From contig CBDDTI010000426.1 of assembly GCA_965233585.1 (NCBI GenBank), positions 1 through 33,793 of the forward strand: 33,793 nt of DNA, given 5' to 3'. Of the stretch, positions 2,522-32,824 are shown piece after piece; positions within the stretch are counted from its first letter, which is position 1, and every line of letters begins with the position of its first letter. The stretch is from a bacterium. Its GTDB lineage: Bacteria > SAR324 > NAC60-12. The notes under the pieces are model-generated. The model did not search any database. It saw only the letters and a program-made list of their open reading frames with translations, and had not been told where the DNA came from. The position numbers were made by a program, and so were the translations under genes.

Positions 2522-2546
2522 CCTGTCATCCGTTTTTACTACAACA

Positions 2547-8500: not shown

Positions 8501-11500
8501 CGCCAATTTGGGCGGGTCATTTATCCATTTATATAGTGACATTAAATATAAGGCGCCAATTTGGGCGGGTCATTTTTTTATTGATGTAGTGACATCGAAA
8601 TATAAGGCGCCAATTTGGGCGGGTCATTTTTCCATTTATTTAGTGACATTGAAATATAAGACGCCAATATGGGCGGGTTATTTTTCCATTCATGTAGTGA
8701 CATCTAAATTTAAGGCGCCAATTTGGGCAGGTCATTTTTCCATTCATGTAATGACATCCAATTATGAGGCGCCAATTTGGGGCGGTCATTTTTCCTTTCA
8801 TGTAGTGACATTGAAATATGAGGCGCAAATTTTGGCGGGTCATTTTTCCATTGATGTACTGACATCAAAATTTACGGCTCCAATTTTTGCGGGTATTTTT
8901 TCCATTGATGTAGTGACATCGATATATAAGGCGCCAATTTTGGCAGGTCATTTTTCCATTAATGTAATGACATCGAAATATAAGGCCCCAATTTGGGCGG
9001 GTCATTTTTCCATTTATATAGTGACATCGAAATATAAGGCTCCAATTTCGGCAGGTCAGTTTTCCATTTATGTAGTGACATCGAAATATAAGGCTCCAAG
9101 TTGGGCGGGTCATTTTTCCATTTATGTAGTGACAACGAAATATAAGGCGCCAATTTGGGCGGGTCATTTTTCCATTTATGTAGTGACATCAAAATATAAG
9201 GCGCCAATTTTGGCGGGTCATTTTTCTATTGATGTAGTGACATCGAAATATAAGGCGCCAATTTGGGAGGGTCATTTTTCCATTTATTTAGTGACATCAA
9301 AATATAAGGCGCCAATATGGGCGGGTCATTTTTCCATTCATGTAGTGACATCTAAATTTAAGGCGCCAATTTGGGCAGGTCATTTTTCCATTCATGTAGT
9401 GACATCCAATTATGAGGCGCCTATTTGGGCCGGTCATTTCTCCATTTATGTTGTGACAACGAAATATAAGGTGCCAATTTGTGCGGGTCATTTTTCCATT
9501 GATGTAGTGACATTGAAATATATGGCGCTAATTTGGGCAGGTCATTTTTCCAATAATGTAGTGACATCGATATATGAGGTACCAATTTGGGTGTGTCATT
9601 TTTCCATTCATGTAGTGACATTGAAATATAAGGCGCCAATTTGTGCGGGTCATTTTTTCATTCATGTAGTGACATTATAATAGAAGGCACCAATTTGGGC
9701 GGGTCATTTTTCCATTAATTTAGTGACATCGAAATATAAGGCACCAATTGGAGCGGGTCATTTTTCCATTTATGTAGTGACATAAAATATAAGGTGCAAA
9801 TTTGGGCGGATCATTTTTCCATGAATGTACTGACGTCGAAATATATGGCACCAATTTGGGCGGGTGATTTTTCCATTTATATAGTGACATTGAAATGTAA
9901 GGCGCCAATTTGGGCGGGTCATTTTTCCATTTATGTAGTGACATAAAATATAAGGTGCAAATTTGGGCGGATCATTTTTCCATGAATGTACTGACATCGA
10001 AATATATGGCGCCAATTTGGGTGGGTCATTTTTCCATTAATGGAGTGACATCGAAATATAAGGCGCCAATTTGGGCGGGTCATTTTTCCATTTATGTAGT
10101 GACATCGAAATATAAGGTGCCAATTTTGGCGGGTCATTTTTCCATTTATGTAGTGACATCTAAGTATAAGGTGCCAATTTGGGCAGGTCATTTTTCCATT
10201 TACATAGTAACATCGAAATATAAGGCGCCAATTTCGGCGGGTCATTTTTCTATTTATGTAGTGACATCAAAATATAAGGCGCAAATTTGGGCGGATCATT
10301 TTTCCATGAATGTACTGACATTGAAATATATGGTGCCAATTTGGGCGGGTCATTTTTCCATTCATGTAGTGACATCGAAATATAAGGCGCCAATTTAGGC
10401 GGGTCATTTTTCCATTCATATAGTGACATGGAAATATAAGGCGCCAATTTGGGCGGGTCATTTTTCCATTCCTGTAGTGACATCGAAATATAAGGCGCGA
10501 ATTTGGGAGGGTCATTTTTCCATTCATGTAGTGATATCGAAATATAAGGTGCCAATTTGGGCGGGTCATTTTTCTATGGATGTAGTGACATTTAAATACA
10601 AGGCGCAAATTTGGGTGGGTCATTTATCCATTTATGTAGTGACATCGAAATATAAGGCACCAATTGGAGCGGGTAATTTTTCCATTTATGTAGTGACATC
10701 AAAATTTAAGGCGCAAATTTTGGCGGATCATTTTTCCATGAATGTACTGACATTAAAATATAAGGTGCTAATTTGGGCGGGTCATTTTTCCAATTATATA
10801 GTGACATCGAAATATAAGGCGCCAATTTCGGCGGGTCATTTTTCTATTTATGTAGTGACATCAAAATATTAGGCACCAATTAGGGCGGGTCATTTTTCCA
10901 TTCATGTAGGGACATCGAAGTATAAGGCGCCAATTTGGGCGGGTTATTTTTCCATTCATGTAGTGACATGGAAATATAAGGCGCCAATTTGGGCGGGTCA
11001 TTTTTCCATTCCTGTAGTGACATCGAAATATAAGGCGCGAATTTGGGAGGGTCATTTTTCCATTCATGTAGTGATATCGAAATATAAGGTGCCAATTTGG
11101 GCAGGTCATTTTTCCATTTATGTGTGACATCGAAATGTAAGGCGCCAATTTGGGCGGGTCATTTTTCCATTCATGTAGTGACATCATAATGTAAGGCGCC
11201 AATTTGGGCGGGTCATTTATCCATTTATGTAGTGACATGGAAATATAAGGCGCCAATTTGGGCAGGTCATTTTTCCATTGATGTAGTGACATCAAAATAT
11301 AAGACGCCAATTTGGGCGGGTCATATTTCCATTAATGTAGTGACATCGAGATATAAGGTGCCAATTTGGGCGGGTCATTTTTCCTTTTTTGTAGTGACAT
11401 CGAATTATAAGGCGCCAATTTGGGTGGGTCATTTTTCCATTTATATAGTGACATCGAAATATAAGGCTCCAATTTTGGCAGGTTATTTTTCCATTTATGT

Positions 11501-12000
11501 AGTGACATCGAAATATAAGCCTCCAAGTTGGGCGGGTTATTTTTCCATTCATGTAGTGACATCGAAATATTAGGCGCCAATTTGGGCGGGTCATTTTCCT
11601 ATTTATGTAATGACATCAAAATATAAGGCACCAATTTCGGCGGGTCATTTTTCCATTTATGTACTGACATCGAAATATAAGGTGCCAATTTGGGCGGGTT
11701 ATTTTCCCATTTTTGTAGTGAAATCGAAATATGAGGCGCCAATTTGGGCGGGTCATTTTTCCATTGACGTAGTGACATCAAAATATAAGGCGCCAATTTG
11801 GGCGGGTCATTTTTCTATTGATGTAGTGACATCGAAATATAAGGCGCCAATTTGGGCAGGTCATTTTTCCATTTATTTAGTGACATCGAAATATAAGGCG
11901 CCAATATGGGCTGGTCATTTTTCCATTCATGTAGTGACATCTAAATATAAGGCGCCAATTTGTGCAGGTCATTTTTCCATTCATGTAGTGACATCCAATT
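2547..12000. repeat. 54-bp tandem satellite array, ~175 units, with higher-order block duplications
   Basis: Consensus CCATTTATGTAGTGACATCGAAATATAAGGCGCCAATTTGGGCGGGTCATTTTT repeated head-to-tail in a single orientation; copy number is length divided by 54. Confidence 0.98.
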
Positions 12001-12022
12001 TGTAGTAAAAACGGATGACAGG

Positions 12023-12548
12023 AGAGAAAAATTAGATGTTTTCGGCCCGAATTCATCTAAAAAAATCTAAATGCGTTCTAAATTCATCTAAAATGATCTA
12101 AATGCGTTCTCGTTGCAAGCAAAACGTCAACTGATTCAATCTAAAAGCATCTGAATGCACACTGATTTCTGGTGCGTGCACCAAAAGTTTGGTGCCTGCA
12201 TTGCTGTGTCTAATGCTGGCATGAGAAATTTGGTGCGTGCACGAAAAGTTTGGTGCCTGCATTGCTCCGTCTAATGCTGGCATGAAAAGTTTGGCGCGTG
12301 CACGAAAAATTTGGTGCCTGCATTGCTTTGTCTAATGCTGGCATGAGAAGTTTGGTGCGTGCATGAAAAGTTTGGTGCCTGCATTGCTCTGTCTAATGCA
12401 GGCATGAAAAAGTTGGTGCACGCACTAAAAATTTCACGCCTGCATCAAAATTTTTCATGTCTGCATTACTTTTTCTGGTGCCGGGATCTCAATTTTGACG
12501 CTGGCGTGAAATTTTAGATCCAGGCACCAGAATGTCAGCGGTCCATAG
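12023..12548. repeat. Left TIR of copy B
   Basis: AGAGAAAAATTAGATG...GTCCATAG is the reverse complement of 32230-32817; contains ~4 units of a ~60-bp repeat. Confidence 0.93.
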
Positions 12549-13009
12549 TTGAGTAAATTGGAGAAAAGAAGCAGAGCTTTTTTCTCTTTTTGCCATAACT
12601 GGTGTTGCAATGTCGCCTAAAAATAGAAAAATTGGAGAAAAAAATAATTTGTCATTTTAATGAGTGACTGTCGTTGTTGAATGAGTGTAAAAGAAAGTGG
12701 AAGAAATGTTCTTCTTCATTCTGTGTAAATTTTCTTGCTGTAATGTTACCAGTGAACGAGCGATTTTTATCAATAATTTAATGCGATTTTTATCAATAAT
12801 TTAATCAATTGTGTTTTTGTTTTTAGCACAAAAAGGTTTTATATACATTTGATTTCTCGAAAAAGTTGTATGGTTCCTTGGTATTTTTTTACCATGCAAT
12901 TTTAATTTTTTCCAAAAATAAATTTTGAACTGACCGCAATTTTTTCTGGTGTTTTCTAGATAATATTTTTGCGCAAAGCAGATGTTTCTTTCTTTTGTTC
13001 TTTTATAAA

Positions 13010-13167
13010 TTCTTCCCATTTCTAGAAAATTCCTATCATTTAGAAACAATTAGGATTGGCGGTATTTTGTAAAATAATTTTTAATTTTTTTCAAAATAAA
13101 TTTTTCAAACTGTCCGCAATTTTTTCTGGGGTTTTCTAGAAATTTCCTTTGTAATAAGGTATATAAG
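13010..13167 (+). promoter_or_regulatory. Candidate heat-shock promoter: two HSE clusters and a TATA box
   Basis: TTCtaGAAaaTTC at 13020-13032 and TTCtaGAAatTTC at 13134-13146, each with a further in-phase TTC 10 bp upstream; TATATAAG at 13160-13167; ATG at 13228. Confidence 0.62.
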
Positions 13168-13227
13168 CAGCCTAAACATCACATTTTATTGCATTTCAAA
13201 TCCATCGCTTGAAAAATCAACATCATC

Positions 13228-13845
13228 ATGACTGACGAAACAGGAATTAGAGACATGACTGGTTATAAATCAATCATTCCTCCATTCCCAGAAACGCAGA
13301 TGACTGATACCTGGATGAAAAACGATAATCAGATGACAATAGCAAATTCTTCGTCGACGCCCATTACAAACGATGAAACGGAAATTAGTGACACGAGTGG
13401 TTATAAAACAATCATCCCACCATTTCCTGAAACTCAGCCGACTGATGCCTGGATTGCCGATGAAAATCAACCAAAAATAGAAACTTCAAATCCATTGTCT
13501 TACACCGTGCCAAACTGTTTTAATTGGTCACCGTTGACGCACCAAAGGTCCTACCATGTTAAAAGCATCTTAGAGAATTTGATGGCAAACGTCTCTTACC
13601 TCGTTTTCGAGCTCGAAAAACTAAAGTTGAGTTTTCCTATTGATATGACTCGTGAAGATGCTCACAAAGAAGAAAAGTTATTGGAGAGATCGATTGAAAA
13701 ATTTCGACAAATGACTAGACAAGTGAGAAAATTAAAGAGGGAAATTATGGGTATGTTAGAAGATGGGGTGTATGTTAACCCACAAAATTACAACCGCTCC
13801 AAATACTCCACGGCCGCTTCTCTTGAATTTGAAATACAAGAATGA
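13228..13845 (+). CDS. Hypothetical protein with two ~35-aa N-terminal repeats and a predicted coiled-coil C-terminus
   Basis: 205-aa ORF downstream of a TATA box; repeats DETGIRDMTGYKSIIPPFPETQ and DETEISDTSGYKTIIPPFPETQ; retained in both copies. Confidence 0.72.
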   Translation: MTDETGIRDMTGYKSIIPPFPETQMTDTWMKNDNQMTIANSSSTPITNDETEISDTSGYKTIIPPFPETQPTDAWIADENQPKIETSNPLSYTVPNCFNWSPLTHQRSYHVKSILENLMANVSYLVFELEKLKLSFPIDMTREDAHKEEKLLERSIEKFRQMTRQVRKLKREIMGMLEDGVYVNPQNYNRSKYSTAASLEFEIQE

Positions 13846-14111
13846 GTCCCCCGCGCGAAGACAATTATCAAGTGGCAGACGTGTCAAACGTTACCGCCAC
13901 CCCCAACATCACAACGAACGCTATTAACAAGATTGTAATTAACACCTTGGATAAACTCCTATCGTCGTCAGATAATACAAGAACCTCAACCCCATTTATT
14001 ATAGTGGCATTGGTATTTTTCTTGCTCTTTTCAACCGTAGGAGCATTCTACGCCGCTTGGTCGGAATCAGACAAATCAGAAAATGATAATGTTCAATCGC
14101 GTTTAAACTAG
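13842..14111 (+). CDS. Small predicted single-pass membrane protein
   Basis: 89 aa with one ~22-aa hydrophobic segment; ATGA overlap with the upstream stop. Confidence 0.7.
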   Translation: MSPPREDNYQVADVSNVTATPNITTNAINKIVINTLDKLLSSSDNTRTSTPFIIVALVFFLLFSTVGAFYAAWSESDKSENDNVQSRLN

Positions 14112-14161
14112 AAATACACATCAAAATTTTATTTTTATGTGCTCAAATACAGATCATGTTT

Positions 14162-15754
14162 TTATTTAGGGTTTTGTATGGCTAAATTCATCATGATTTT
14201 TTCATTTGTTTCAAAATTAATCAATTCTCCGTCAAGTCTTTTTAACTGAAAATGCAACAAATCCAGTCGACTTGTATTACACTTTATGTATTCCAAATTT
14301 TCAAAATGCGTCGTCACATAATTGTCTTGTTCCTCGGCTCTATTAATTGGTATAACTTTTAATACAGGGTAAAACTCGTCTCCAATTACCGAGTGATTGA
14401 CGAAATTGGCATAGCAGATCATCACTCCCGGATATAGATAGTGCGGATCTAGACGTTCGTCACTTATAAATTGATTACTTTCATCCGCCAAAACAATGTC
14501 ATCATCTTGACTTATTCCTAGCAATAATCTTATTTCATGCGGCACTCTTATCCTTACTACCAAGGAGCGATTGAATTGATTGCCGACCCGTTTTACTTTA
14601 AAATGGTTTTTATGTGCGGAAATTTGAATGAGTCTTTGTAAATCTTTGCTCATACCATTATACATGGCCTCGATTAATTCATCCGTTGTTTTGATAGACC
14701 TCTTCTCAATGCAAAAGCAAAATCGCATTGTTTCAATCATTACCTCGATTTTCACAGGTGGAAATGTTTCTGTTGGGTCAGGATTTTGCATTGGCTGTTG
14801 CGATATAAATTCTTTTCTCTCCGGTCCCATAACAATATATTCTTCTTTGATTCCCAAAATGTTTTTTAATTCGGGCGGTATCAGCACTTTTACCTCAGGT
14901 GATTTAAATTCGGCATCGTACGTCGTCGGTCCGGTGTAAATTACTCGAAAAAACATATCTGCCGATTCTTTTGTTTTCTCCGTTTGCCCAAATTCAACAA
15001 AATTACGTACTACGCTGTCTCTTCCGTCGTTTAAGCGATGTAATAAGTAAGCAATTGTTTTCCGCTGATCAAGTTTGACCTCGATTTCTTGCTTGAACGG
15101 GTCTGTACTTACTTTAATTTTCTTATCAAAAACGCTTAACGGAACGCTATTAACCCGATTTGGAAAGGAGATGTCGGCTAAGGCTATTTTAGCTCCTTCG
15201 TTTAAATAAATGGGATGGCTCAAATGTACCTCGAAATTGTTGTTTTTCTGCGCGGGTTTTATGTTGTCGTCCATTTTTGAGTCGACGCGAATGTGCTTTG
15301 TCAAATATGACATCGCTCGTTTTGTTTTTCGCAAATGAAGTAAAACTAGACTCGGCTGACCCGATTTTAGTTTCAGAAGTTTGTCGGATGCGTCTAAAAA
15401 CTCAATGCCCACTGATTTTATTGAAGTGTTTTGAATAGGATAATATCGTATGTTGTTTAAAGTATGGTAGAAATATTTCCGTTTTTTGCTTGAAGGCAAG
15501 TCGGCCACGCATAAGATGTGAGAATTCTCGTTTGAGCTTGTAGACACAATGTTGGATTTAACCTGGACCACGTCAAAAACAAAATCTTGTTTCACATTTA
15601 AATGCAGACCAAAAGCTACAACCCCGACTTCCCAATCTCTTCTTTTGTTTAATTCTAAATTTTTCGGTAAAAAATTGTTAAAACGCGTTAGCGTGTTCAC
15701 GTAACAATCAGTGCTTGCGTTTGAAATGCAATATATAAGATGTCCTCCTTTCAT
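14162..15754 (-). CDS. Minor capsid protein (penton), apparently two tandem jelly-roll domains
   Basis: Polinton penton N-terminal pattern SNAS...NTLTRF...LP..LEL...WEVG and C-terminal pattern S.IGD..YPVLK.I...F....YI.....L..I.F. Confidence 0.85.
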   Translation of the reverse strand: MKGGHLIYCISNASTDCYVNTLTRFNNFLPKNLELNKRRDWEVGVVAFGLHLNVKQDFVFDVVQVKSNIVSTSSNENSHILCVADLPSSKKRKYFYHTLNNIRYYPIQNTSIKSVGIEFLDASDKLLKLKSGQPSLVLLHLRKTKRAMSYLTKHIRVDSKMDDNIKPAQKNNNFEVHLSHPIYLNEGAKIALADISFPNRVNSVPLSVFDKKIKVSTDPFKQEIEVKLDQRKTIAYLLHRLNDGRDSVVRNFVEFGQTEKTKESADMFFRVIYTGPTTYDAEFKSPEVKVLIPPELKNILGIKEEYIVMGPERKEFISQQPMQNPDPTETFPPVKIEVMIETMRFCFCIEKRSIKTTDELIEAMYNGMSKDLQRLIQISAHKNHFKVKRVGNQFNRSLVVRIRVPHEIRLLLGISQDDDIVLADESNQFISDERLDPHYLYPGVMICYANFVNHSVIGDEFYPVLKVIPINRAEEQDNYVTTHFENLEYIKCNTSRLDLLHFQLKRLDGELINFETNEKIMMNLAIQNPK

Positions 15755-15759
15755 ACTTG

Positions 15760-16839
15760 TTACGCTCGATTAATAACGCTATCTTCTGCAATCCAGCTAA
15801 GGTTTTTATAGCCTTTCCACTTCACCAACACCAACTTCTGCCCGGTTCTTTTATCTTTCTTCCTTCTCACAATTTTTTCAATGTGAAATAATTCCGGCGG
15901 CTTGGCCAGAGTCAGCTCATTAGCATAAAAATTTCCCTCTACCGTCTCGTCACCGTCCAGAGTTTCTAGCTCGTATGTAGGTATGGGTAATCGCGTAAAC
16001 ACCCGTCTGATCTTGTAAATTTCTTCAGTAAATTGCTTATTGTAACCTCTGTCAAATTGAGCTCTGTAGTTACTTATTCTGACCGTCTGGCCTTTCTTAA
16101 ATTTAGGCGGTCGCCTCTTTATTTTCGCATAAGCCTCTTCTTGTTTCATTCGGACTTTGGGTGCGTTTTTTGCTTTTTCCGCTTCAGCTGGACTCATACC
16201 GATCATTCTATGAACGCGCGAGTTATACGTCTTTACTAAAGATTGAAGCACGTGGATAAATCGATCCGTACCCCTAGATGTCATATATTTAAACATTAGA
16301 CTTTTAAGAGATCTGTTAAATCTTTCCACAAACGGCGCGTGCACAAAGTTGTCGCTGTGTAAAAGAGTAATGCCTTTACGTCGACAGTAGTCTTTAAAAA
16401 ATTTATTCTTGATCTCTAACCCTCTATCAGCTAGAATTTTTCGAGGCGGCTGTCTGGCTTTTTTTACAATGGTTTTGAATCCTTTTAAAAAAACCAAAGC
16501 TGTCTTGTTTTTTATGGGTTCAACAAAGGCATATCTCGAAAAAATGTCGATCGCTGTCAGCAAGTAACGATAATTGTCATTCGCGTTTGCCATTTTCCCA
16601 ATTTCAACCAAGTCTATTTGGAATTGATATCTTTTGTAATAAACATAGGTTGGGTTCCTAGGTTTTGGAGCCTTAGGTTGTCGGTGCAGAGTATAGGTGT
16701 CCGACGCCTGCAGCCATTTCTTTATTTTATTTATGGGTATGGACCCGTTAAAATGATTAAAAACGCGGTTCGGCGATGAAAAGGCAAAAGGCGAGCCGGG
16801 CGAAGTGTAAGCTTTTAAAAATTCGCGTTTAGTAATCAT
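15760..16839 (-). CDS. Retroviral-type (RVE) DDE integrase with C-terminal chromodomain
   Basis: WL.....YTLH, FQIDL, IDIFSRYAF, ILADRG, VERFNRSLK, YN...H..IGMSP; chromodomain IEKIV...LVKWKGY. Start taken at the ATG at 16839. Confidence 0.95.
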   Translation of the reverse strand: MITKREFLKAYTSPGSPFAFSSPNRVFNHFNGSIPINKIKKWLQASDTYTLHRQPKAPKPRNPTYVYYKRYQFQIDLVEIGKMANANDNYRYLLTAIDIFSRYAFVEPIKNKTALVFLKGFKTIVKKARQPPRKILADRGLEIKNKFFKDYCRRKGITLLHSDNFVHAPFVERFNRSLKSLMFKYMTSRGTDRFIHVLQSLVKTYNSRVHRMIGMSPAEAEKAKNAPKVRMKQEEAYAKIKRRPPKFKKGQTVRISNYRAQFDRGYNKQFTEEIYKIRRVFTRLPIPTYELETLDGDETVEGNFYANELTLAKPPELFHIEKIVRRKKDKRTGQKLVLVKWKGYKNLSWIAEDSVINRA

Positions 16840-17254
16840 CCTCGTCGTCGTTGTCGTCCTCAACATAAAACAGCGGTTTTTGTTTTGTTTTTCTTCTCTT
16901 ACCGCTTCCTACCGCATGCGTGCTATTTTTTCTCTTGACCGGTCTCTTGGACGCCTGTGCAGGCCTACTCGCCTTACCAGCCAGTAAGATGTTTCTAGTC
17001 GCGGATTTTAATCTCTTTTTCGCAGCGGCTCCAACTGCCCTGCCGTCCAAGGCTTCCAGTGCGGTGTCAATGGCTGCTCGTCCCGCCTCTTTTTTCAAAT
17101 ATCGTCCCGCTGATCTGACACCCTCGCTTCTCGCAATTTTACCGATTGTCTTTGCGGCGCCCTTCGCCACCGGAACCAACGACCGGAAAAGACTGCTAAA
17201 AATTGAACCTAATCCCGCCCCAGCTTGCACAGACGGTCCACGGTGGTATCGCAT
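16829..17254 (-). CDS. Basic virion core-like protein with N-terminal amphipathic helix
   Basis: QAGAGLGSIFSSLFRSLVP pattern typical of small Polinton structural proteins; K/R-rich. Confidence 0.75.
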   Translation of the reverse strand: MRYHRGPSVQAGAGLGSIFSSLFRSLVPVAKGAAKTIGKIARSEGVRSAGRYLKKEAGRAAIDTALEALDGRAVGAAAKKRLKSATRNILLAGKASRPAQASKRPVKRKNSTHAVGSGKRRKTKQKPLFYVEDDNDDEDDY

Positions 17255-17260
17255 ACTTTA

Positions 17261-17980
17261 TCAATTTTCAATTTTTTTGACGCACCTGCTTAAGGCCATC
17301 GGACTAACGCCTAATTGCTCGGCTAAACGCGATAAGCTTTTCGGCTTTTCCTGATCAACCCTACTCCGTTGTTCTCTTAAAAAGACGTGCGCGCATGCCG
17401 CGATTAGTGTTTTTGGCGAAAAAACAAACTTTTTTTCGTGTTGCTTTACTTTCTCTCTAATTTCCTTCAACTCCTTGTAGCTTAGATTTAAAGAGTGAAG
17501 AAAATATTCGCACATTAAATTTGGGCTGTAGAAAGAGTCGTCGTTTTTGAGATATTGCCACACTTTGTCCTGCTTGACGCCGGTTATGCCACATAAATCT
17601 TTCATCGGTCGCGGCACCCCCGACTCTATAAGCGCGGTGTAGATGCACATTACCGCTAAACTTTCTAAACAAACACCTCTTTTCCCTCTTTTCCCGCTAG
17701 CGTCCCATTTTTTGGCGATGACGCGTTTTAAATCCGCGCATTCGATATTGCACTTATAGCATACCCTTTGCATTGTCTCATCAGTAAAATTGTTTTTGTC
17801 GCAAGTCACATCCTCGCTCATTTTCTCCGCTTTAATCGATTCGAGCCGATAGTCGTACGGGGCATATATCCGATCATGCATCACGAGCCCGCAATCTGTA
17901 CATACTTCACACCCGTTTGAAAAATCATCCACAATATTGTAATGAGAACAAGTCCTGTTGAAATTATGAAAACGAGGCAT
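17261..17980 (-). CDS. TFIIB-like transcription initiation factor
   Basis: Zn-ribbon CSHYNIVDDFSNGCEVCTDCGLV; cyclin repeat 1 SLAVMCIYTALIESGVPRPMKDL; repeat 2 SPKTLIAACAH...LAEQLGVSPMALSR. Confidence 0.9.
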   Translation of the reverse strand: MPRFHNFNRTCSHYNIVDDFSNGCEVCTDCGLVMHDRIYAPYDYRLESIKAEKMSEDVTCDKNNFTDETMQRVCYKCNIECADLKRVIAKKWDASGKRGKRGVCLESLAVMCIYTALIESGVPRPMKDLCGITGVKQDKVWQYLKNDDSFYSPNLMCEYFLHSLNLSYKELKEIREKVKQHEKKFVFSPKTLIAACAHVFLREQRSRVDQEKPKSLSRLAEQLGVSPMALSRCVKKIEN

Positions 17981-18023
17981 GTTTATTTCTCCGCACGCGC
18001 TGCAAAACTGAAACGCGAATCAA

Positions 18024-18584
18024 CTATCGATCGCTCTTATATTGTTTTAAAAAATCTATAATAAAGTCCAAACTATGTTTGACCGCATCTTCGGACTTGG
18101 CCCCGATAATTACCATCTTGCCTGTGGAAAATATTAAAACCGTGTTGGCTTCAAAAGTCACAAACATGCCTGGGAAACGTTCGGGATTGAAGCGTACTTT
18201 TTTCACGTAGCTCTCCTTCCGAAGTTTATCAAAAACGTCCGGCAGCGGTATCTCAAAGCCTGCACGAAAGGAACAAGTTAAATTGTTTATTTCCCATGTT
18301 TGCACAGAGAAACGATTGCTGATAATGTCCGTCAGCAGACTTAACGATATTTTTATATCCGCTCGCGATGGCACTTTGGTAATATTGACATGATATGATT
18401 TGTTGTTTCCACGAGTCTTGAAAATGGTGTAGACGTATTGTTTCCTTACTACCGTAAAATTACTAAAAACTTTTTGTGACACATCTTTATTTAAGGATAA
18501 CGGCCCCTCATCCGCAAGAATAATTGTGCAGCTAAGCTTTATATTTGTCACAGTGACGTGCTCCGTGTTGTCTAGAAATGTCAT
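18024..18584 (-). CDS. TATA-binding protein (TBP)-like factor
   Basis: 186 aa; VTNI at the start of repeat 1, then INNLTCS...FNPERFPGM...VLIFSTGKMVIIGAKSED matching the TBP repeat signature. Confidence 0.92.
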   Translation of the reverse strand: MTFLDNTEHVTVTNIKLSCTIILADEGPLSLNKDVSQKVFSNFTVVRKQYVYTIFKTRGNNKSYHVNITKVPSRADIKISLSLLTDIISNRFSVQTWEINNLTCSFRAGFEIPLPDVFDKLRKESYVKKVRFNPERFPGMFVTFEANTVLIFSTGKMVIIGAKSEDAVKHSLDFIIDFLKQYKSDR

Positions 18585-19918
18585 CGTTGATTAATGGCGG
18601 TGTCGGTGGTTTAAATGTGGATTTCAATGAATTGCAGGGTGATAGTTTGAATGCGCATGCGACCCCCCTTGAAGACGCGGATTTAATATCGGGTCGTACT
18701 GTGCTATATAGTAGCGTGACTCCCGTCGAAGATTTAGAAGATGTTACGTTTTCAATTCCTTCCGACCCCGAATGCGCTTTTGTTTTAAATCAGACGAGGC
18801 TAGAGGGTCACTTTGTGGTAAAGACTGACAGCGGCGAGGGTGTAGCAGAGACTGACACGACAACAATTACTAACCATTATTGCGCCGCATTATTCTCGCA
18901 AATTGAAGTCCACCTTAACAAAACTCAAATATGTGATTTGAGTGCCCCTCTTTCTTATTCGTACAAACATCACATTGATTTTCTTCTGTCTTATAATAAT
19001 AATGTATTAACAAATGTGGGACGGTCCGAAGGCTTTTGCCGGACGCACCACGACAAATGCTTTGACAATATTGCCACGACCGGTAAAATGTGCCAATGCA
19101 TCGCGGAGAATCGTCCGAAAATAATGAACGACAAAAAAGTTTATTTTAGCTCAACTTTGCCCGTCGATATTTTTTACACCGACAAATATTTACCTCCGAA
19201 TGTGGAAATCACTGTTGTATTACGCAGGTTCAACCCATGTTTCGGGCTGCTTCAAGATAATCCGAACAAAGTCTATCGCATTCGTTTAAAGGAATTAAAA
19301 CTTCGCATGAGAAAAGTGTTACCGTGCGAGCGTGTGCGAAACAGGCTAAACGCCGAACTGCTAAAAGGTCGACCTTTTTTTCTGCCTTTTAAAGACACGC
19401 AGATGAAGCATTATCTGATCCCGTCTGGTTCCCTTAGTTTCTCCGCAAATCACATCAACAATAGCGAGATGTTGCCGCAACAAATTATTTTCTGCATGCT
19501 TCGAAGCGACCTTTTTGCTAAGGGACCGAGCTATCATTTCCCCTTTAAATTTAAACACGCCGATTTAGCATCCGTAATTTTGAAAAACAATGGAAGACCC
19601 CTCTTGCCTAGGCCTATAGAATGCAAGATAGATACAGGCGATTATATGGAATTGTACGACCATTTTCAAAGCAACGTCGGCGGCAGAAATTGTATTTCGC
19701 CCCAAGCTTTTACAGAGGGTCAGATGTTTCTCGCGTTCGACCTGACTCCGGATAAATGCCTATCCTTTCACAATCACGTCGGAGTGCCTGGAAATTTAGA
19801 AGTAGACTTGACTTTTAACACCGCCACCAGATCCCCCTTAACCCTGATTTCTTACGCTATTTATAATGCTGCCATTTCCATCGACAGCAACCTTCAGGTT
19901 ACCAAAATAAAATATTAA
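18578..19918 (+). CDS. Major capsid protein (double jelly-roll) paralog 1
   Basis: LNQTRL, ALFSQIEVHLN, YSYK, DIF..DKYLPPNV...V.L.R, LPQQI, AFDLTPD, GNLEVDLTF. Confidence 0.88.
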   Translation: MSSLINGGVGGLNVDFNELQGDSLNAHATPLEDADLISGRTVLYSSVTPVEDLEDVTFSIPSDPECAFVLNQTRLEGHFVVKTDSGEGVAETDTTTITNHYCAALFSQIEVHLNKTQICDLSAPLSYSYKHHIDFLLSYNNNVLTNVGRSEGFCRTHHDKCFDNIATTGKMCQCIAENRPKIMNDKKVYFSSTLPVDIFYTDKYLPPNVEITVVLRRFNPCFGLLQDNPNKVYRIRLKELKLRMRKVLPCERVRNRLNAELLKGRPFFLPFKDTQMKHYLIPSGSLSFSANHINNSEMLPQQIIFCMLRSDLFAKGPSYHFPFKFKHADLASVILKNNGRPLLPRPIECKIDTGDYMELYDHFQSNVGGRNCISPQAFTEGQMFLAFDLTPDKCLSFHNHVGVPGNLEVDLTFNTATRSPLTLISYAIYNAAISIDSNLQVTKIKY

Positions 19919-19987
19919 AATTGCACACCGCCGACTCCCTCTTTTTAAGAAGAACAGAAAACTACAGACTAGCATGCATTTTCGACA

Positions 19988-21322
19988 ATGACTGAAAAGG
20001 GTGGCATCGGAGGTCTAGGGTTCGAGCAGGACGATTTGACAGAACAAGCTCTTGATCTGCACGCGCCGCTCGGGGTCGATATAAGCCTTGAAAAAGGCAA
20101 TGATGTGGTCTACAACAGCGTTTCCAGCGTTTCAAACACCGGACCGATCGAATTCATCATCCCGCGAGACGAAGAGTGTTCCATCATTCTGGATCAGACT
20201 AGATTAATAGGGCATTTCGTTGTCAAGACAGCAAAGGATGAAAATGTCGGACCCGACGATCGAGTCTTTCTGGTCAATAATTTCGCGAGCAATCTATTTA
20301 GCGCGGTTGAAATCTACATTAACGGTACTCAAGTCTGCGACTTGAGCACGGCAAATTCCTACCCTTTCAAAAACTTTATCCAGACCGAGTTGTCGTTTGA
20401 TAGAGAGACCAAACAGAGTCAGCTAAGAGCCGAAGGTTATTTTGAAGAAAAAGAAAACGATATTGGAGCTTGCGAGCCCGGTATAAATCAGCGTTTAATA
20501 CACCGTCGAAATCTTATACTTCACGGCAAAAAAGTTTATTTCTGCTCTCGATTGGGGGCGGATATTATGTATACGGATAAGTATATGCCACCGAATGTCG
20601 ACATCAAGATTAAGCTTATTAGAAACAGTCCGACATTCGGTATTCTTCACGCCGAAGATGACAAATCTTTTAAAATCGTTTTAAAGGATTTAAAGTTGAA
20701 AATGAGAAAAGTTTTGCCGGTCGAGCAGCAGAGAAAGCATTTTAGGATGAAAATGTCTCAACAGCCCTGCTATATACCCTTTAAGCTGAGTCAGTTGAAG
20801 GTTTTTGTGATTCCAGCCGGGGTCACATCGTACACCGTTACCAATATTGCCTCACAAATACTGCCCAAACAAGTTATTTTCACCCTAATTCACAACCAAG
20901 CCTTGACGCACGATAGCAAATTCAACCCGTTCGACTTTCAACACTTTGATCTTAATTATTTCAATCTTATTAAAAACGGACAATGCGTCTTCCCAAAAGC
21001 TTTTCAGCCGGATTTTGATGATGATAACTACATGGACCTGTACAGACACATGTACGACAGCACGGGTTTCGGCATTTCAAATAGTTCTTGCGACATTTCG
21101 CCCGCGGTTTTTAAGAGAGGAAGATGTTTTCTAACTGCCGATTTGACCCCCGATCGCTGCAACAGTTTTCACATTCACCCCGACGAAAAAGGCAAGTTGG
21201 ACTTGGAATTAGGCTTTAAAACAGCCAAGCCTCACCCCATCTACCTGCTAGCCTACAGCATTTTTAATTCCGGAATTAAAATAGAGGAGAACGGCCAAGT
21301 TATTAGGGCCGAAGAGCGATAA
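19988..21322 (+). CDS. Major capsid protein (double jelly-roll) paralog 2
   Basis: GPIEFII, VNNF..NLFSAVEIYING, YPFKNFI, DKYMPPNVDIKIKLIR, LPKQV, NPFDFQHFDL, DLTPD. Confidence 0.92.
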   Translation: MTEKGGIGGLGFEQDDLTEQALDLHAPLGVDISLEKGNDVVYNSVSSVSNTGPIEFIIPRDEECSIILDQTRLIGHFVVKTAKDENVGPDDRVFLVNNFASNLFSAVEIYINGTQVCDLSTANSYPFKNFIQTELSFDRETKQSQLRAEGYFEEKENDIGACEPGINQRLIHRRNLILHGKKVYFCSRLGADIMYTDKYMPPNVDIKIKLIRNSPTFGILHAEDDKSFKIVLKDLKLKMRKVLPVEQQRKHFRMKMSQQPCYIPFKLSQLKVFVIPAGVTSYTVTNIASQILPKQVIFTLIHNQALTHDSKFNPFDFQHFDLNYFNLIKNGQCVFPKAFQPDFDDDNYMDLYRHMYDSTGFGISNSSCDISPAVFKRGRCFLTADLTPDRCNSFHIHPDEKGKLDLELGFKTAKPHPIYLLAYSIFNSGIKIEENGQVIRAEER

Positions 21323-21807
21323 TGGCCGGTTTGAGCAACGTATTTCTAGATCGGTTTTTATCCCCACTTTGCAAGAATTTCATCGGCACCTTTGCAGTCG
21401 ACACGTTACCCTCAAACTTGTGGAACACTAGCTGTTGCGCCATCGTCAATCTTTCGGTTTCAAGCCATCCCGGCAGTCATTTCATCGCCTTTTTTATTAA
21501 TAAGCAAAACTATTTGTATTATTTCGACAGCTATGCACTACCCGTGCCCACCTATAATCACCACCTCATCCATTTTTTGAAAAAATGGGAAAATTGCGGC
21601 AGAATAAGACATGTCCTGGACCGATCGATTCAAGCTTTCGATTCTTTGTTTTGCGGGTGGTATGCTGCCGCATTCTGCATGTTTGTCAATGCATACGCAA
21701 ACGTGAAGCCGCGGCACTTTTGCACTTTTTTTAATCCCAATAATTTACGCGAAAATGAAAAACGCGTCAAACATTTAGTTAATTGTTTGCAAGTCAAGCT
21801 TTATTAG
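21322..21807 (+). CDS. Adenain-family (C5) maturation cysteine protease
   Basis: IVNL....PGSHF, YFDSY, IQ...S.FCGWY provide the His, Asp, Gln and Cys catalytic residues. Confidence 0.93.
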   Translation: MAGLSNVFLDRFLSPLCKNFIGTFAVDTLPSNLWNTSCCAIVNLSVSSHPGSHFIAFFINKQNYLYYFDSYALPVPTYNHHLIHFLKKWENCGRIRHVLDRSIQAFDSLFCGWYAAAFCMFVNAYANVKPRHFCTFFNPNNLRENEKRVKHLVNCLQVKLY

Positions 21808-21930: not shown

Positions 21931-23143
21931 TCACTTGCTGCCGAGTTTGGCATTGACGGGGAAATCCAGACCTTGACACAGCTCCACCATACCCTCGGTA
22001 AATTCATCCAACTTGTGCAGAGGAAAATTCATCCTAATTATCTTGGTGCTGTGGCTTTTGTTGTTGTCGTTATACTGTGGGAAAAAAGATTTTTTACGCA
22101 TTTTTCCGCTCAATTTTTTTCTATTTACATTTTTATTTCGCCTTACCTGCTCTTTAGAGACGTAAAATACCGGCCACACGCTAAGGCCCGCAGCACGCTG
22201 GATATGCCTAACGCCGCTAACTCCAATTACCATCCTAGGGTTGGATGCAATCACTTTGCTCATCGGGGCAAAAGGCAAGCTCACCGATCGCGATGACACC
22301 TCCTTGTTTTTAAAAGCCTCAATAAACTTTTTCATGGTGGCTGGATTAGGGTAGATGTACTGTTGGGCAAAACAGTGCAAAAAGTTTTTTAAACAAAAAT
22401 ACGCTGAGCTGATTTTGAACTGTTTTACTCACCCCGTCGTCTCCAATAAAATATTGTTCGCGATGGCTGTGGCTTTCTAGCCACTTGGAAAAGTTTACCT
22501 CCGCGGTTTTTACGCGCTCGTTAACATCCCATTTGCAAGGTCGAAACAACTCCTCTTGCTTTTTCCTTGACAAATTAATCCCATCCACCTTGGACGAAAC
22601 CGGCTCCGGCTCGACATAATTTTTCCTTTTTGAATCTGGTAATTTCTTTTTGCCTGAATCGGACCTGGGTCTTTTTTTCACGCAAAACGGCTTTCCTCGA
22701 TCCTCCATCTCCGGTTCTTCAATATCAGTCGGAGCATCGTCATCATCATCGTCATCATCGTCATCCTCATTATCATCTTGGGCGGCATCAGACTCAACAT
22801 CGTTATCATCGTTATCAGAGCCGTCTCGCATGTTCTCTGAGCCGGATTCTTCAGACTCGTCATCGCTTGAATTCTCGTTGTCTCTCATGTCCTCATCCTT
22901 CTCCATGTCTGAGTCGGAATCTTCTAATTGCTTATGTCCTTTGTTCGCAGACGACGAACGGGATTTGGCAAGTTTACTACTTTTTTGCTCTTTGGTGTAA
23001 ACTTTTGACGTTTTTTCAACGAGGCTTTTGTCGAACGGTGTCTTTTTCGTGACCTTTTTATGCGCAGACTTCCCCTTTTTTTTGTACAAGATCGTCTTGC
23101 TGCCTTTGCCATTGCTTTCAGATGATGTAGCCAGTTTACCCAT
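21931..23143 (-). CDS. Hypothetical ~379-aa protein with basic and acidic low-complexity N-terminus; two exons (23143-22433, 22359-21931)
   Basis: Two out-of-frame ORFs join in frame through a 73-nt intron GGG|GTGAGT...CAACAG|TAC, giving FIGDDG-YIYPNP. Confidence 0.7.
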
Positions 23144-25790: not shown

Positions 25791-28700
25791 ATGAACAGCG
25801 ACTCTGTAAACGTGCCCGAGTATTTATTAAAGTGTCGAAGTGTTTTATGGAACAGAAAATACGATGAAAAGAATTTTCTATATTGTGTCATAGGACATCT
25901 TTGGCCGGAAACGGCAAACATCAGACAATGTGAAAAAATTCCAAAGGAGTATGAAAGTAAATTTAACTTGCAGGGTTTAACCTTTCCCCTGCAGTTTAGC
26001 CAGATTAGCAAGTTTGTTCGAATTAACAAGCACCTACCGTTACGTATAAGAGTTCTTTTTGAAGGTGAACATCAACTGAGTGTTTTAGACGTTTTCTCCA
26101 ATAGATCCGGCGAGAAAAATAAGAACAAAAATACGCTAAATTTGCTAATGATTAAAAGTGATCGTCAAATTTCATCGGCCAATAAAGACAGCATTGACGT
26201 AAATGGCATTTCCAACGTGAAAGACCTTGAGCATCAGCACCATTTTTTCACCATTGCTAATTTAAATGGCTTTCTGAACAACCGAAAATCTGCTATGACC
26301 AAAGGAAGACGGCATAGAAGTCAGTTTTATTTTTGTGACAGCTGTTTAAGAGATTTTCGTTCGCGCAAGAAACAAAAATTACACGAAAAAATCTGTCAAA
26401 TGGATAAACAAGCGGTGATTTATCCAGAAAAGGGCAGTGTCTTGAATTTCGATAAGCAAAGAAATGCTTTTAAAGCACCTGTAGTGGGATTTGCTGATTT
26501 TGAGTGTTTTATGGAAAAGTCAGAGCAAGAAGCAAAAACATGTAAAACATGCGGAAAAGCGTGGGTGACATGCGAATGTCAAGTGTCGGGATGTGCTGAG
26601 CTAAGTAAACATCGAGCTTGCGGCTATTCAATTTGTTTTGTCGATTCGGAAAACGAAGTATTTTATCAAGAAACGTACAGTGGAAAAGACGCTGTGGAAA
26701 ATTTTTTATCAAAGCTGGATTATTTCGAAGAATTAGTGGAAGCGCGAAAGCAACGGTTCAAGAACACATCTCAAATTATAGCGAGCAAACATGATTGGGA
26801 AGAGTACCACGCCGCCACGCTATGTCATATTTGCAAAAAAGATTTTGATTCAGGCTCGCGATTATATAAAAAAGTGGTTGATCATGATCACGTCACCGGA
26901 AACATTGTTCAAGCGGCGCATTCTATTTGCAATCTGCAACGACAGGGTCCATTTAGAACACCTATATACTTTCACAACGCCAAGGGGTAAGTACAGACTT
27001 TTTTAATCAAATGCAAATATTTATAATCCTTGACTTGAGGGAAGGTCAAGATAAAATTTTTTTTTTATTTTAAGATATGACATAAATCTACTAGTAGAAA
27101 AATTGGACAAAGAGGCTAATCTGATGGCGAGTAACCAAGAAAAGTTTAGGACAATCACTATTGGAAAATTTCAAATTAGGGATTCTCTAGAGCACGTGCC
27201 ATCCAGTCTTGATGCGCTCATGACGGATTTATGCAAGGATGAGACGTTTACCTTCCCGATTCTCAAACAATTCGAGCCTTACAAGAGGCTGTGGACGCGA
27301 CAAAAGGTGAAAGGTTTAAAATTATTGAAAAGAAAAGGAGTATATCCGTATGAATACTTTTCATCATATGAGTCGATTAAAAACAGTCAATTTCCACCAA
27401 AAGACGCTTTCTACTCGAGATTGAGCGAAGCCCACATCTCAACCGAAGATCATAAGCACGGCTATGAAGTGTTCAAGTTTTTTAATTGTAAAAATATGGA
27501 CGACTACATGAAGTTATATTGTGGACTGGACGTGATTTTGCTGGCTGAGATTTTTGTAAAGTATCGAGAAATGGTGATGAAGCACTTTGAGTTGGATCCC
27601 ATCTACTATTTAGGTATACCTGGCTTGTCATTTGACATCATGCTTAAAATGTTTCAAAATGAAGAAAGAAAAGACGAAGAAGAGATTAGTCCTGATTTAA
27701 TGTCGAAACCACCGGGCTCATTGGACTTGTTTCACGATCCGGCAATGGAACAGTTTTTTACACGCGGCATTAGAGGAGGGCAGAGTTTTATAGCTACCAG
27801 ACAAGCAACGGGTCAGGCCGATCCTAAAGCGAGCGGCGAGCATTTACTATATGTAGATGGTAATATTTTTTATTAAACGTCAAAGAAAAAAAGTTTGATT
27901 AAAATTACGATACATTTTCAGCTAACAATCTTTACGGCAGCATGGAAACACGCATGCTGCCGGTGGGTAATTTTAAGTGGGTGCCAAAAAAGGAGATAAA
28001 AACATGGACGGACAAGGACATTTTGAATTTGCCTTCGCAAAGCAGGATTGGCTATGCTTTTGAAGTGGATTTGCACTATCCAAAAAAATATCATGAGGTA
28101 AATAATTGTTTCTGCTAAACACCAACTGCTAGAAAAAATTTTTTTATTTATTTTGCAGAGAGATGATCAATTTCCTTTGGCTCCTTACACTGACACAATA
28201 AACTATGATGATCTGTCACCGTTTAACAAACAACTTTTGAAGAAGCACTGTCCGACAGATTACAAAAACAAACGTTACAGTTCGCGAAAGCTTCTTGCCA
28301 CATTCTACCCGCGACGTAAATATGTCGTCTTGTTAGATAATCTAAAGTATTATTTGAGGCGAGGGCTGAAGCTTACAAAAATCAGACGAGCGGTCAAGTT
28401 TGAGCAAAAAGACTTTTTAAAAAACTTTATCACAAAAATTACAAAATTAAGGTCGGAGGCAAAAACTGATTTTGAATTACGTCTCTTCAAGTTGTTTGCC
28501 AATTCCACATTTGGCAAATTTATAGGTAAAATAAAGTAATGGCTCCATTTTTTTCACAATAAAATGTTTAATTTTTTTCAGAGAACGCGCGAAACTACAT
28601 CGAAATCGTATTGTGCCACAATGAAAAGAAGCTGAGAAAGACTTGCGTGGGTCAGCATGTTTCGAATTTGAAAGTCATAAACGAAAACCTTGTGGCTGTC

Positions 28701-29369
28701 ATGAAAAAACCGGCCGTTATTGAAATGAAGAAACCGTTGGCGGTAGGGTTTGCGATTTTGGAACTATCCAAACTCTACATGTATCGATCGTACGACAAAT
28801 TTAGACGTTACTTTGGAACGGAGAATCTAAGGCTGTGCTTTTCGGACACAGACTCGTTTCTGTTTCAAGTAAAATGTCAAAATTTAGTTAAAAAGTTAAA
28901 AAGAATGGAACACATGTTCGACTTCTCAAAATACGATAAAGATCACGAGTTGTTTGACGATAGCAGAGCCAATCATTTGTTTTACTTCAAAGACGAGCTA
29001 AAAGGAAAGGCTGCAATTACTGAATTTATCGGCTTAAGGCCAAAATGTTACAGCATGACGGTCAAGGATTTGAAAACCCGAGGAGCCAGCGTAAAGAAAA
29101 TTTGTAAGGGCCTCAAAAAAACTAGTATTAAGAATCACTTGACCTTTGAGGATTATAAAAAATGTTTAAACGAATCAACATTGGTATATAAGCCTCTTGT
29201 TAATATTAAATCAAAGAATCACAGAATGTCAACAACCTACCAACGGAAAATTGCTCTATCTGCCATGGACACCAAACGTTATGTGCTTTCTTGCGGAAAG
29301 TGCACTTTGGCCTTAGGAAGTTGTCATGTAAAAAAATGTTATAAACATGAATGTAAGAAAATCAAATAA
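25791..29369 (+). CDS. polB: Protein-primed family B DNA polymerase, 5 exons (25791-26986, 27075-27859, 27922-28097, 28159-28525, 28582-29369), ~1103 aa
   Basis: Splicing restores HNAKG|YD, YVD|ANNLYG, YHE|RDDQFPLAP and KLFANSTFGKFI|EN; also ADFEC, RKGVYPYEY, SDTDS and an EndoVII-like insert CHIC...DHDH...AHSICNL. Confidence 0.93.
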
Positions 29370-29431: not shown

Positions 29432-30118
29432 ATGGACGGATTTGATTTGCGCTTTAAGCTTCCATCTAACTTACTCGCGGTAGGTCCCACTTCTTGCGGA
29501 AAAACGTCATGGCTAAAAAAACTGGTTGAAGATAGGGCCATAATGTGCTCGCCCGTTCCGGAATGTATGATTCTATTTTACAAAGAATTTCAACCGACCT
29601 ATGCTGATATGGAGCGGGGGATGAACGATGACGCGCGTGAAAAGAGGTTTTGCAAATTTTCATCCATGCCAGAATCGGTTGAAGAGATGAAAGATATACT
29701 GGAAACGTTCCCTAGAGCTCTTCCGAAAATTGTGGTATTTGACGATTTTCTTGATGAAGTAGGATCGGTGCTAAAGCACTTTTTCACGGTTTTAACGCAT
29801 CATTATAATTGTTTGACAGTTTTTTTGTGTCAGAACATGTTTAGCGCCAAAAGCGAACTCAGAATGCTCAGCATCAACTCGCAGTACATGATTTTATTCA
29901 ACAATCCGAGAGACCGTAGCGCCGTCTCGCACCTGGCTAAACAGGTGTATCCGGGTAACGTGCATCGGCTAAACGATGCATATGCGGCAGCAACCGGTGA
30001 AAGACCTTATGGCTATTTACTGTTGGATTTTCATCAGCAGCAAAATAATTCGGTTCGATTAAGAAGTCATATTTTTCCGGACGAACAGCCTACAAGGGCG
30101 TACAACGTACGCACGTAA
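29432..30118 (+). CDS. A32/FtsK-like DNA packaging ATPase
   Basis: Walker A GPTSCGKT, Walker B IVVFDD, HH.N..V....QN, NPRD, PYGYLLLD. Confidence 0.94.
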   Translation: MDGFDLRFKLPSNLLAVGPTSCGKTSWLKKLVEDRAIMCSPVPECMILFYKEFQPTYADMERGMNDDAREKRFCKFSSMPESVEEMKDILETFPRALPKIVVFDDFLDEVGSVLKHFFTVLTHHYNCLTVFLCQNMFSAKSELRMLSINSQYMILFNNPRDRSAVSHLAKQVYPGNVHRLNDAYAAATGERPYGYLLLDFHQQQNNSVRLRSHIFPDEQPTRAYNVRT

Positions 30119-32043: not shown

Positions 32044-32229
32044 AAATGACAAATCTTTGTATAAAAAATTTCCTAAATTGATTGTTAGAAAATTTTAAAA
32101 AACAAGATAAAAGATAAAAATAAAATTTTCATATTTTTGCAATTTCCTTAACTATTTAGTAACAGCATTCCGTTGAAGTTTATAGCAAAAAAGAAAAGAA
32201 AACCCGAGTTATTGAGCGCGTTTCTTCGT

Positions 32230-32817
32230 CTATGGACCGCTGACATTCTGGTGCCTGGATCTAAAATTTCACGCCAGCGTCAAAATTGAGATCCCGGCAC
32301 CAGAAAAAGTAATGCAGTCATGAAAAAATTTGATGCTGGCGTGAAATTTTTAGTGCGTGCACCAACTTTTTCATGCCTGCATTAGACAGAGCAATGCAGG
32401 CACCAAACTTTTCACGCACTGCATCAAACATTTCATGCTGGCATTAGACAAAGCAATGCAGGCACCAAATTTTTCGTGCACGCGCCAAACTTTTCATGCC
32501 AGCATTAGACAGAGCAATGCAGGCACCAAACTTTTCATGCACGCACCAAATTTCTCATGCTGGCATTAGACGGAGCAATGCAGGCACCAAACTTTTCGTG
32601 CACGCACCAAATTTCTCATGCCAGCATTAGACACAGCAATGCAGGCACCAAACTTTTGGTGCACGCACCAGAAATCAGTGTGCATTCAGATGCTTTTAGA
32701 TTGAATCAGTTGACGTTTTGCTTGCAACGAGAACGCATTTAGATGAATTTAGATGAATTTAGAACGCATTTAGATTTTTTTAGATGAATTCGGGCCGAAA
32801 ACATCTAATTTTTCTCT
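32230..32817. repeat. Right TIR of copy B
   Basis: Reverse complement of 12023-12548 with one extra ~60-bp unit. Confidence 0.93.
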
Positions 32818-32824
32818 CACAACA

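Follow-up and report, generated by a model that had tools for sequence, protein, structure and literature searches.

A TBP and TFIIB gene pair and a candidate late promoter box in a clade of Polinton-type elements

Results

Organization of the element

The window, that is, the whole stretch of 33,793 nucleotides analysed here, contains a Polinton element that spans about 20.8 kb between inverted repeats. The hallmarks of Polintons/Mavericks (pPolB, rve integrase, terminal inverted repeats, and a size of 15-25 kb) are present, and the packaging ATPase and the adenain protease were recognised via relatives. This agrees with the element of about 20 kb proposed in an earlier note, which was made from the letters of the window. 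The features of the element are as follows.

12022..12557, plus strand: left terminal inverted repeat (repeat comparison)
14162..15754, minus strand: conserved 530-aa protein, penton or minor capsid protein by position only (no useful profile match)
15760..16866, minus strand: rve integrase with a C-terminal chromodomain (family match)
16829..17254, minus strand: basic Arg/Lys-rich protein, putative virion core (label from composition and position; no family match)
17261..17980, minus strand: viral TFIIB, 239 aa, with zinc ribbon, short linker, two cyclin repeats and HTH (profile and fold)
18024..18584, minus strand: viral TBP, 186 aa, no N-terminal extension (PF00352 and fold)
18578..19918, plus strand: putative major capsid protein 1 (40% identical to capsid 2; PF21738, weak)
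19988..21322, plus strand: putative major capsid protein 2 (paralogue of capsid 1)
21322..21807, plus strand: adenain-type maturation protease (family profile E 1.6e-8)
25791..29369, plus strand: protein-primed DNA polymerase B (pPolB) in five pieces, with four short GT-AG stretches between them
29432..30118, plus strand: A32/FtsK-type packaging ATPase (relatives match PF04665, E 3.6e-9)
32221..32818, minus strand: right terminal inverted repeat, without the approximately 20 outer bases common to both left ends

On the minus strand, the genes are arranged in the order TBP, TFIIB, basic core protein, integrase and 530-aa protein. The TBP and TFIIB ORFs are adjacent, co-oriented and open, as the earlier note had described them, with TBP first and 43 nt between the two; the TFIIB stop codon lies 6 nt from the basic core-protein gene, and the start codons of TBP and capsid 1 overlap head to head by 7 nt (18584 / 18578). 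The pair was also rightly placed between the integrase/core genes and the capsid genes, with the reservation that the capsid label is weakly supported: of 29 family members, two matched PF21738 (E 2.8e-4 at best), and neither the capsid nor the penton-like (530-aa) profile matched a solved relative. No RNA polymerase family was found among the 20 element ORFs scanned, in accordance with the earlier note; the other ORFs of the 51 were satellite frames, duplicate copies and short overlapping frames.

The two capsid paralogues stand in tandem at 18578-21322, where environmental relatives and two families of the assembly have one. The TBP-proximal paralogue evolves faster (dN/dS 0.17-0.35 versus 0.05-0.11).

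The four candidate GT-AG introns in pPolB are about 56-88 nt long, and their coordinates give compatible phases. In some environmental relatives the polymerase frame runs without interruption for 830-1040 aa. Another candidate GT-AG intron (22346-22430) joins a 265-aa acidic ORF to a 134-aa ORF, and its donor and acceptor were visible in all families that were compared. The assembly comprises 12 Mb and was scored 92% complete as a prokaryote, yet it holds 41 copies of an intron-bearing eukaryotic element, which points to a bin with much eukaryote DNA. Judging from the introns and the gene set, the host is a eukaryote, probably an animal.

No target-site duplication was seen at the element ends, and the right end looks clipped by another element; one or more short inverted-repeat elements abut the right terminal repeat (32825-33423). 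The left end of the element is duplicated in inverted orientation (1-2544 versus 12000-14553, 98% over 2467 nt), and the two copies face each other across a 54-bp satellite of about 170 copies (2460-12000). Both left ends have about 20 common outer bases starting with TTGTAGT, which also occurs in the satellite unit. The satellite was absent from all other contigs of the assembly.

Viral TBP

In the search with PF00352, only residues 98-182 of the viral TBP, the second repeat, were matched (E 1e-16). When its AlphaFold2 model (pLDDT 91) was compared with solved TBPs using Foldseek, both lobes aligned over about 190 columns (E 7e-10 to 9e-7, TM 0.55-0.70, identity 16-24%), and the first match that was not a TBP appeared at E 1e-3, weaker than the last TBP by three orders of magnitude. 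The protein is, as modelled, a full two-lobed TBP saddle. The earlier note had called the first repeat degenerate; since both lobes align in the model though Pfam covers the second repeat only, this holds for the sequence and not for the fold. The first helix of the N-lobe is missing, according to DSSP on the model.

We examined the residues expected at the DNA interface in 106 relatives, where the register against yeast TBP was set by motif and the residue roles were taken from Table 1 of PMC12529657, consulted in part. The four intercalating Phe residues are largely kept (F43 in 81, with Tyr in 17 more; F55 in 99; F137 and F152 in all 106), as are the Asn/Pro contacts N14 (103), N101 (102) and P138 (102). 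Four other DNA-face positions differ from those of cellular TBP: in yeast numbering, Lys stands at V71 and Asn at V122 in 106 of 106, V161 is mostly Thr/Ser, and T215 is Val/Ile/Leu. In the acidic stirrup of the C-lobe that binds TFIIB, one Glu is kept in 78 of 106 and the other position is Asn in 92 of 106.

In the protein atlas, generic TBP/TFIIB clusters alone were found. A Polinton-type TBP of 318 aa (P0155) carries about 130 extra N-terminal residues that matched no Pfam family.

Viral TFIIB and the predicted pair

As a single sequence, the viral TFIIB gave weak matches (PF08271 at E 1.2e-4, under the cut-off; human TFIIB at E 3.2e-6). The profile of the 46-sequence family matched human TFIIB at E 7.1e-19 and yeast TFIIB at 7e-8, followed by archaeal TFB (4.5e-6), Brf1 (1.4e-5) and Brf2 (2.3e-5). 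Among the 46 members, 40 matched the zinc-ribbon family and 36 the TFIIB-repeat family; in the ribbon motif C-x-H/C-x2-C, the three Cys were present in 45/45 and the His in 41/45. The first 25 structural matches of the model were TFIIB, TFB or Brf1 (Z 10.4-12.3), with an rmsd to solved matches of 7-9 A over about 165 residues and of 2-3 A per single repeat. A cyclin followed at Z 10.3, so the fold alone cannot separate TFIIB from cyclins. The identities proposed in the earlier note are thus borne out by the fold for TBP (Foldseek) and by the family profile (E 7.1e-19) for TFIIB.

The segment between the ribbon and the core, which the earlier note had described as short, comprises 23-44 variable residues in 45 relatives. 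Counterparts of human TFIIB residues 55-104 are absent, so that about 50 residues of the reader and linker are missing, and no B-reader motif was found. With the B-reader and B-linker missing, the protein is to be regarded as a TFIIB-like variant and not as canonical TFIIB, and the loss of about 50 residues may impair initiation.

The predicted TBP-TFIIB complex scored 0.43 against 0.00 for the best control, which is weak support: of 157 solved pairs 116 reached the mark, as did 2 of 215 mismatched ones, and the range at or below 0.60 held 18 solved pairs and both mismatches. The runs agreed in 71% of contacts, and the partner pLDDT was 79 or higher. Since TBP and TFIIB are a textbook pair, the prediction may pass from likeness.

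Spread, conservation and selection

TBP occurs at 41 loci of the assembly, which form about six families that share less than 80% identity. TFIIB lies next to TBP in all 41, and TBP lies upstream in 41 of 41 core-protein loci with room for it. Other Polinton-like elements in the same assembly are without TBP and TFIIB, and the module is therefore clade-specific. Among the best 150 clusters (50% identity) in the profile search of the full library, more than 130 further ones carried this signature. We examined 81 environmental loci (the best 80 of 139 confirmed and one more), which are partly redundant and comprise 47 lineages under 80%. TFIIB is next to TBP in 78 of 81, the other three stopping at TBP, and the capsid gene stands head to head with TBP in 73 of 81, the misses lying at contig ends. 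One fixed gene order was thus kept across more than 45 divergent lineages. The earlier note had named loss of the pair from related elements as a finding that would count against it; the clade keeps both genes (41/41 and 78/81), where the environmental loci were selected by TBP and are for that reason unable to show such a loss.

In five family pairs of the assembly, dN/dS was 0.20-0.31 for TBP and 0.12-0.31 for TFIIB, values similar to those of the protease and core genes; near-identical environmental pairs were uninformative for this measure. Both genes are under purifying selection. In a quick tree of 32 rows, 29 element TBPs were set off by a long branch from three cellular TBPs; with three cellular rows and no giant-virus rows, the tree cannot name a donor. 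The position outside the cellular TBPs, the 16-21% identity to eukaryotic TBPs and the dN/dS of 0.12-0.31 speak against recent host capture, as the earlier note had argued.

Searches of viral contigs with a single TBP, the integrase and a close TBP alignment gave no real match, two phage false matches having been dropped before the counts, and a search with the capsid profile found only one contig, already in the set. A few copies in the assembly are broken (C670, C224 and C514). A different Polinton-like element, with integrase and protease, encodes a zinc-ribbon protein (G000:C389:6740-7615 and G000:C273:10902-11648) and no TBP; the C273 protein matched the TFIIB profile faintly (E 0.0065).

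A candidate box before capsid and core genes

Upstream of the capsid genes we found a putative box with the consensus (A)ACAN-TATYTAAR, in which AACAN comes from flanking positions. TATYTAAR occurs within 220 nt of the capsid start in 42 of 45 non-redundant environmental loci (about 3 expected) and before 6 of 12 capsid genes in the assembly (0.8 expected). The copies in the window are as follows.

17376..17383, minus strand: variant form TTTTTAAG, within TFIIB, 129 nt upstream of the core gene (family C98 has TATTTAAG at -128)
18488..18495, plus strand: TATTTAAG, the putative late box, 90 nt upstream of capsid gene 1 and antisense to TBP codons 30-33
19942..19949, plus strand: variant form TTTTTAAG, intergenic, 46 nt upstream of capsid gene 2 (families C593 and C93 have TATTTAAG)

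The capsid box overlaps TBP codons in antisense orientation, so that codon usage can distinguish constraint on the protein from constraint on the DNA. The TBP Leu codon at the box was TTA in 47 of 47 (background 0.39, p 4e-20 with 76 columns examined). When the codons of TFIIB were scanned independently, an Ile codon turned out to be ATT in 42 of 45 (background 0.48, p 7e-11, 82 columns); the site within TFIIB has the sense-strand sequence (A/T)CAN-T(A/T)ATTAAR, lies 163-188 nt upstream of the core gene, and is not kept in the window's own family. These codon patterns indicate DNA-level constraint on the box copies that lie within the coding sequences of TBP and TFIIB.

Some candidates were rejected. 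The strongest TBP codon signal, Ser AGT in 45 of 53, was set aside since all 53 Ser codons are AGY, a codon-family lock, within which AGT makes up 85% against a background of 67%. The N-I-K codons were rejected as a capsid TATA box, the constraint lying eight to ten codons further on.

Subsequently, a box matrix trained on the capsid sites alone was applied to the other gene classes, which had been held out. Upstream of the core, ATPase, 117-aa and penton-like genes, the matrix gave 5.8-7.4 against 0.1-1.3 for shuffled sequences, and no enrichment was observed before integrase, TBP, TFIIB and polymerase genes (-0.8 to 1.7). A control comparing sense and antisense strands split the gene classes in the same way; the protease class was ambiguous, being flat against shuffles and giving p 6e-5 in the strand control. 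In the families of the assembly, the matrix backs the capsid genes only (6.6 versus -0.7; core -0.9, ATPase -1.8). In the window's own element, a box stands in 3 of 22 upstream regions, two of them as the TTTTTAAG variant that was chosen after seeing the data, and the ATPase, penton-like, protease and 117-aa genes are without a box upstream. A form with C at position 4 was found in 28 of 47; the window's family has the T form, without TCTA. The guess in the earlier note that the pair serves late or structural promoters thus gains support, at the level of sequence, from the box before capsid and core genes.

Candidate promoter of the TBP gene

Upstream of the TBP genes of relatives, TATAWAW was found in 18 of 50 (3.8 expected) and the initiator TCAGT in 32 of 50 (10.1 expected); in 13 of 18 the two motifs were 27-34 nt apart. 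In the assembly, 6 of 6 families had no TATA plus initiator within 120 nt of the TBP gene.

Discussion

Proposed mechanism

We consider it probable, from the sequence patterns, the models and the analogy with known systems, that the viral TBP and TFIIB are made early and guide host Pol II to late structural promoters; likewise, the pair is likely to serve throughout the clade as a two-protein module for late transcription, in a nuclear virus of the Polinton/Maverick type. In this mechanism, host TFIID and Pol II would act first, transcribing both viral genes early from a promoter with an ordinary TATA and an initiator. The viral TBP, with the four DNA-bending Phe kept and polar changes on the DNA face, would then bind the variant box TATYTAAR. 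The viral TFIIB would bind the C-lobe of TBP, its terminal HTH may read the upstream ACA bases, and its zinc ribbon would dock host Pol II without a B-reader. Finally, the capsid, core-protein and other morphogenesis genes would be switched on. Since the capsid box lies within the 5' end of TBP on the opposite strand, late capsid transcription could, speculatively, damp TBP transcription.

A bolder reading is one that we hold tentatively, as a little short of an even call: the re-specified TBP and the reader-less TFIIB alone may redirect host Pol II to TATYTAAR, and would then be the smallest viral initiation kit seen so far. As parts of the same tentative reading, the elements may form a widespread, undescribed clade of Polinton viruses of about 20 kb with an early-to-late switch whose target promoters lie inside both genes, and may, by analogy, have converged on the herpesvirus TATT solution, including the same Val-to-Asn change.

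Alternative explanations

The box might instead be a weak TATA read by host TFIID, with the viral proteins serving as decoys or as competitors (in host shut-off, or to titrate Pol II or TBP regulators), or else boosting transcription in general, instead of conferring specificity. A TFIIB without reader and linker and a TBP whose N-lobe lacks the first helix would fit such a role, and cellular TBP can use TATTTAA as a TATA variant. We nevertheless regard this explanation as unlikely: the DNA-face residues of the viral TBP are invariant, yet unlike those of cellular TBP; C stands at box position 4 in 28 of 47, and C at this position is poorly tolerated by cellular TBP; the box and the ordinary TATA sort by gene class; and C304, the one element in which a capsid homologue was verified and TBP is absent, is without the box (n=1). 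That the pair recruits Pol III in a Brf-like manner, or has a role outside transcription such as binding the termini or guiding integration, appears very improbable. Brf1 and Brf2 are among the structural matches of TFIIB, and the short linker resembles Brf proteins, but the TFIIB profile reached E 7e-19 with human TFIIB against 1.4e-5 and 2.3e-5 with Brf1 and Brf2, and the box stands before long protein-coding genes and not at the termini.

The element might also resemble virophages, so that the RNA polymerase of a helper giant virus transcribes it, the box mimics the late promoter of the helper and the pair adapts the enzyme. TATCTAA includes TCTA, which is the CroV late motif (PMC5294985, consulted in part), some Polinton-like viruses use helper promoters (bioRxiv 2022.07.28.501842, likewise in part), and giant-virus proteins are also among the fold matches of TBP and TFIIB. 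On the other hand, the four GT-AG stretches in pPolB point to a nuclear, spliced transcript, which argues against a cytoplasmic helper polymerase; a host-type TATA plus initiator precedes TBP in relatives; the giant-virus early motif AAAATTGA stands before 0 of 53 TBP and 0 of 50 TFIIB genes, and before 2 of 12 polymerase genes with 0.3 expected; the window's family has the T form of the box and no TCTA; and a helper would supply its own factors. We therefore judge this explanation to be rather improbable. Recently captured or neutral host cargo, which the few broken copies (C670, C224 and C514) would suit, is refuted for practical purposes by the 16-21% identity to eukaryotic TBPs, the dN/dS of 0.12-0.31 and the gene order fixed across more than 45 lineages.

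Relation to known systems

In polymerase-less Nucleocytoviricota, TBP and TFIIB occur without a polymerase in chloroviruses, prasinoviruses and CpV-BQ1, and redirection of host Pol II has been proposed for them, as described in the consulted part of PMC12085832. The same source describes giant viruses with further late factors (VLTF3), whereas the pair found here belongs to a 21-kb integrating element in which the genes are adjacent and minimal and the candidate box is embedded in them. No evidence of descent from the TBP/TFIIB of Nucleocytoviricota was found, the structural matches having 11-21% identity.

The viral TBP also resembles KSHV ORF24 and EBV BcRF1 in the TBP fold, the four Phe and the polar residue at V161, and N485 of ORF24 is the same Asn as that of the viral TBP at yeast V122, with the register set by motif (PMC12529657, in part). 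According to that part of the source, beta/gammaherpesvirus late promoters carry TATTWAA, which the TATT-like box before structural genes recalls. ORF24 is, however, a protein of 752 aa that has its own N-terminal Pol II-binding domain, needs five more viral factors and is without the TFIIB-binding acidic residues (PMC12529657), whereas the viral TBP is a bare 186 aa, keeps one stirrup Glu (78/106) and is accompanied by its own TFIIB. The element has this 186-aa TBP only, and no large vTBP of the kind in the herpes-type pre-initiation complex. Poxvirus VITF-3 is similar as a dedicated TBP/TFIIB-like pair for one temporal gene class; it works with a viral cytoplasmic polymerase and forms a three-lobed ring (PMC12917281, in part), whereas two lobes and no viral polymerase were found here. 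Compared with cellular TBP-TFIIB/TFB (PDB 1VOL, 1C9B and 1AIS), the folds and most DNA-contact residues are shared; in contrast, the viral TBP is 16-24% identical, lacks the N-lobe helix and has four DNA-face substitutions, and the viral TFIIB differs in its recognition helix and has nothing that corresponds to human residues 55-104. By analogy, the Polinton clade would work like the herpesvirus and polymerase-less giant-virus systems, and it is a member of neither.

The element otherwise resembles Polintons/Mavericks/adintoviruses in its inverted ends, pPolB, rve integrase, ATPase, adenain, putative capsids and size of about 20 kb (PMC8502044, in part). In that source, Starrett et al. gave a lone 'TBP' label in figure legends on MELD viruses in the non-animal section; its text described no TFIIB, pair or promoter, and one supplement file had no match. 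Beyond this label, no TBP+TFIIB pair was found in the Polinton literature searched, a scope outside which lay most subscription papers, Repbase and figures; in further Polinton papers searched, TBP and TFII were absent as terms, apart from a mention of TFIIB that concerns giant viruses only. The novelty considered in the earlier note consequently stands in that no TBP/TFIIB pair was found for Polintons, and is reduced by the TBP-like label of Starrett et al. and by the polymerase-less pair of giant algal viruses. What is new here is the TBP+TFIIB pair in Polintons together with the box, and what was already known is the polymerase-less viral pair in giant algal viruses, so that the claim is slightly narrower than had been implied.

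If the bolder reading is true, TBP, TFIIB and promoter would make up an orthogonal set, in which nature tests whether Pol II can start without B-reader and without TAFs. Initiation factors that hijack a polymerase, known from giant viruses and herpesviruses, would with this pair reach down to elements of 20 kb. The pair and the box address the question of gene control in Polintons, and of whether these pass through a true viral cycle that has an early and a late phase. With two proteins and one 14-bp element, the pair and the candidate box offer a direct small-scale test system, and studies of Pol II initiation would gain a natural altered-specificity TBP and a reader-less TFIIB.

Codon signals were also seen in other genes of the element. 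In the 530-aa (penton-like) gene, the Asn at codon 109 (region of 15428-15430 in the window) is AAC in 26 of 27 relatives (background 0.32, p 2e-12), a sign of constraint on the DNA itself, and in the capsid gene a Phe codon is TTC in 23 of 32.
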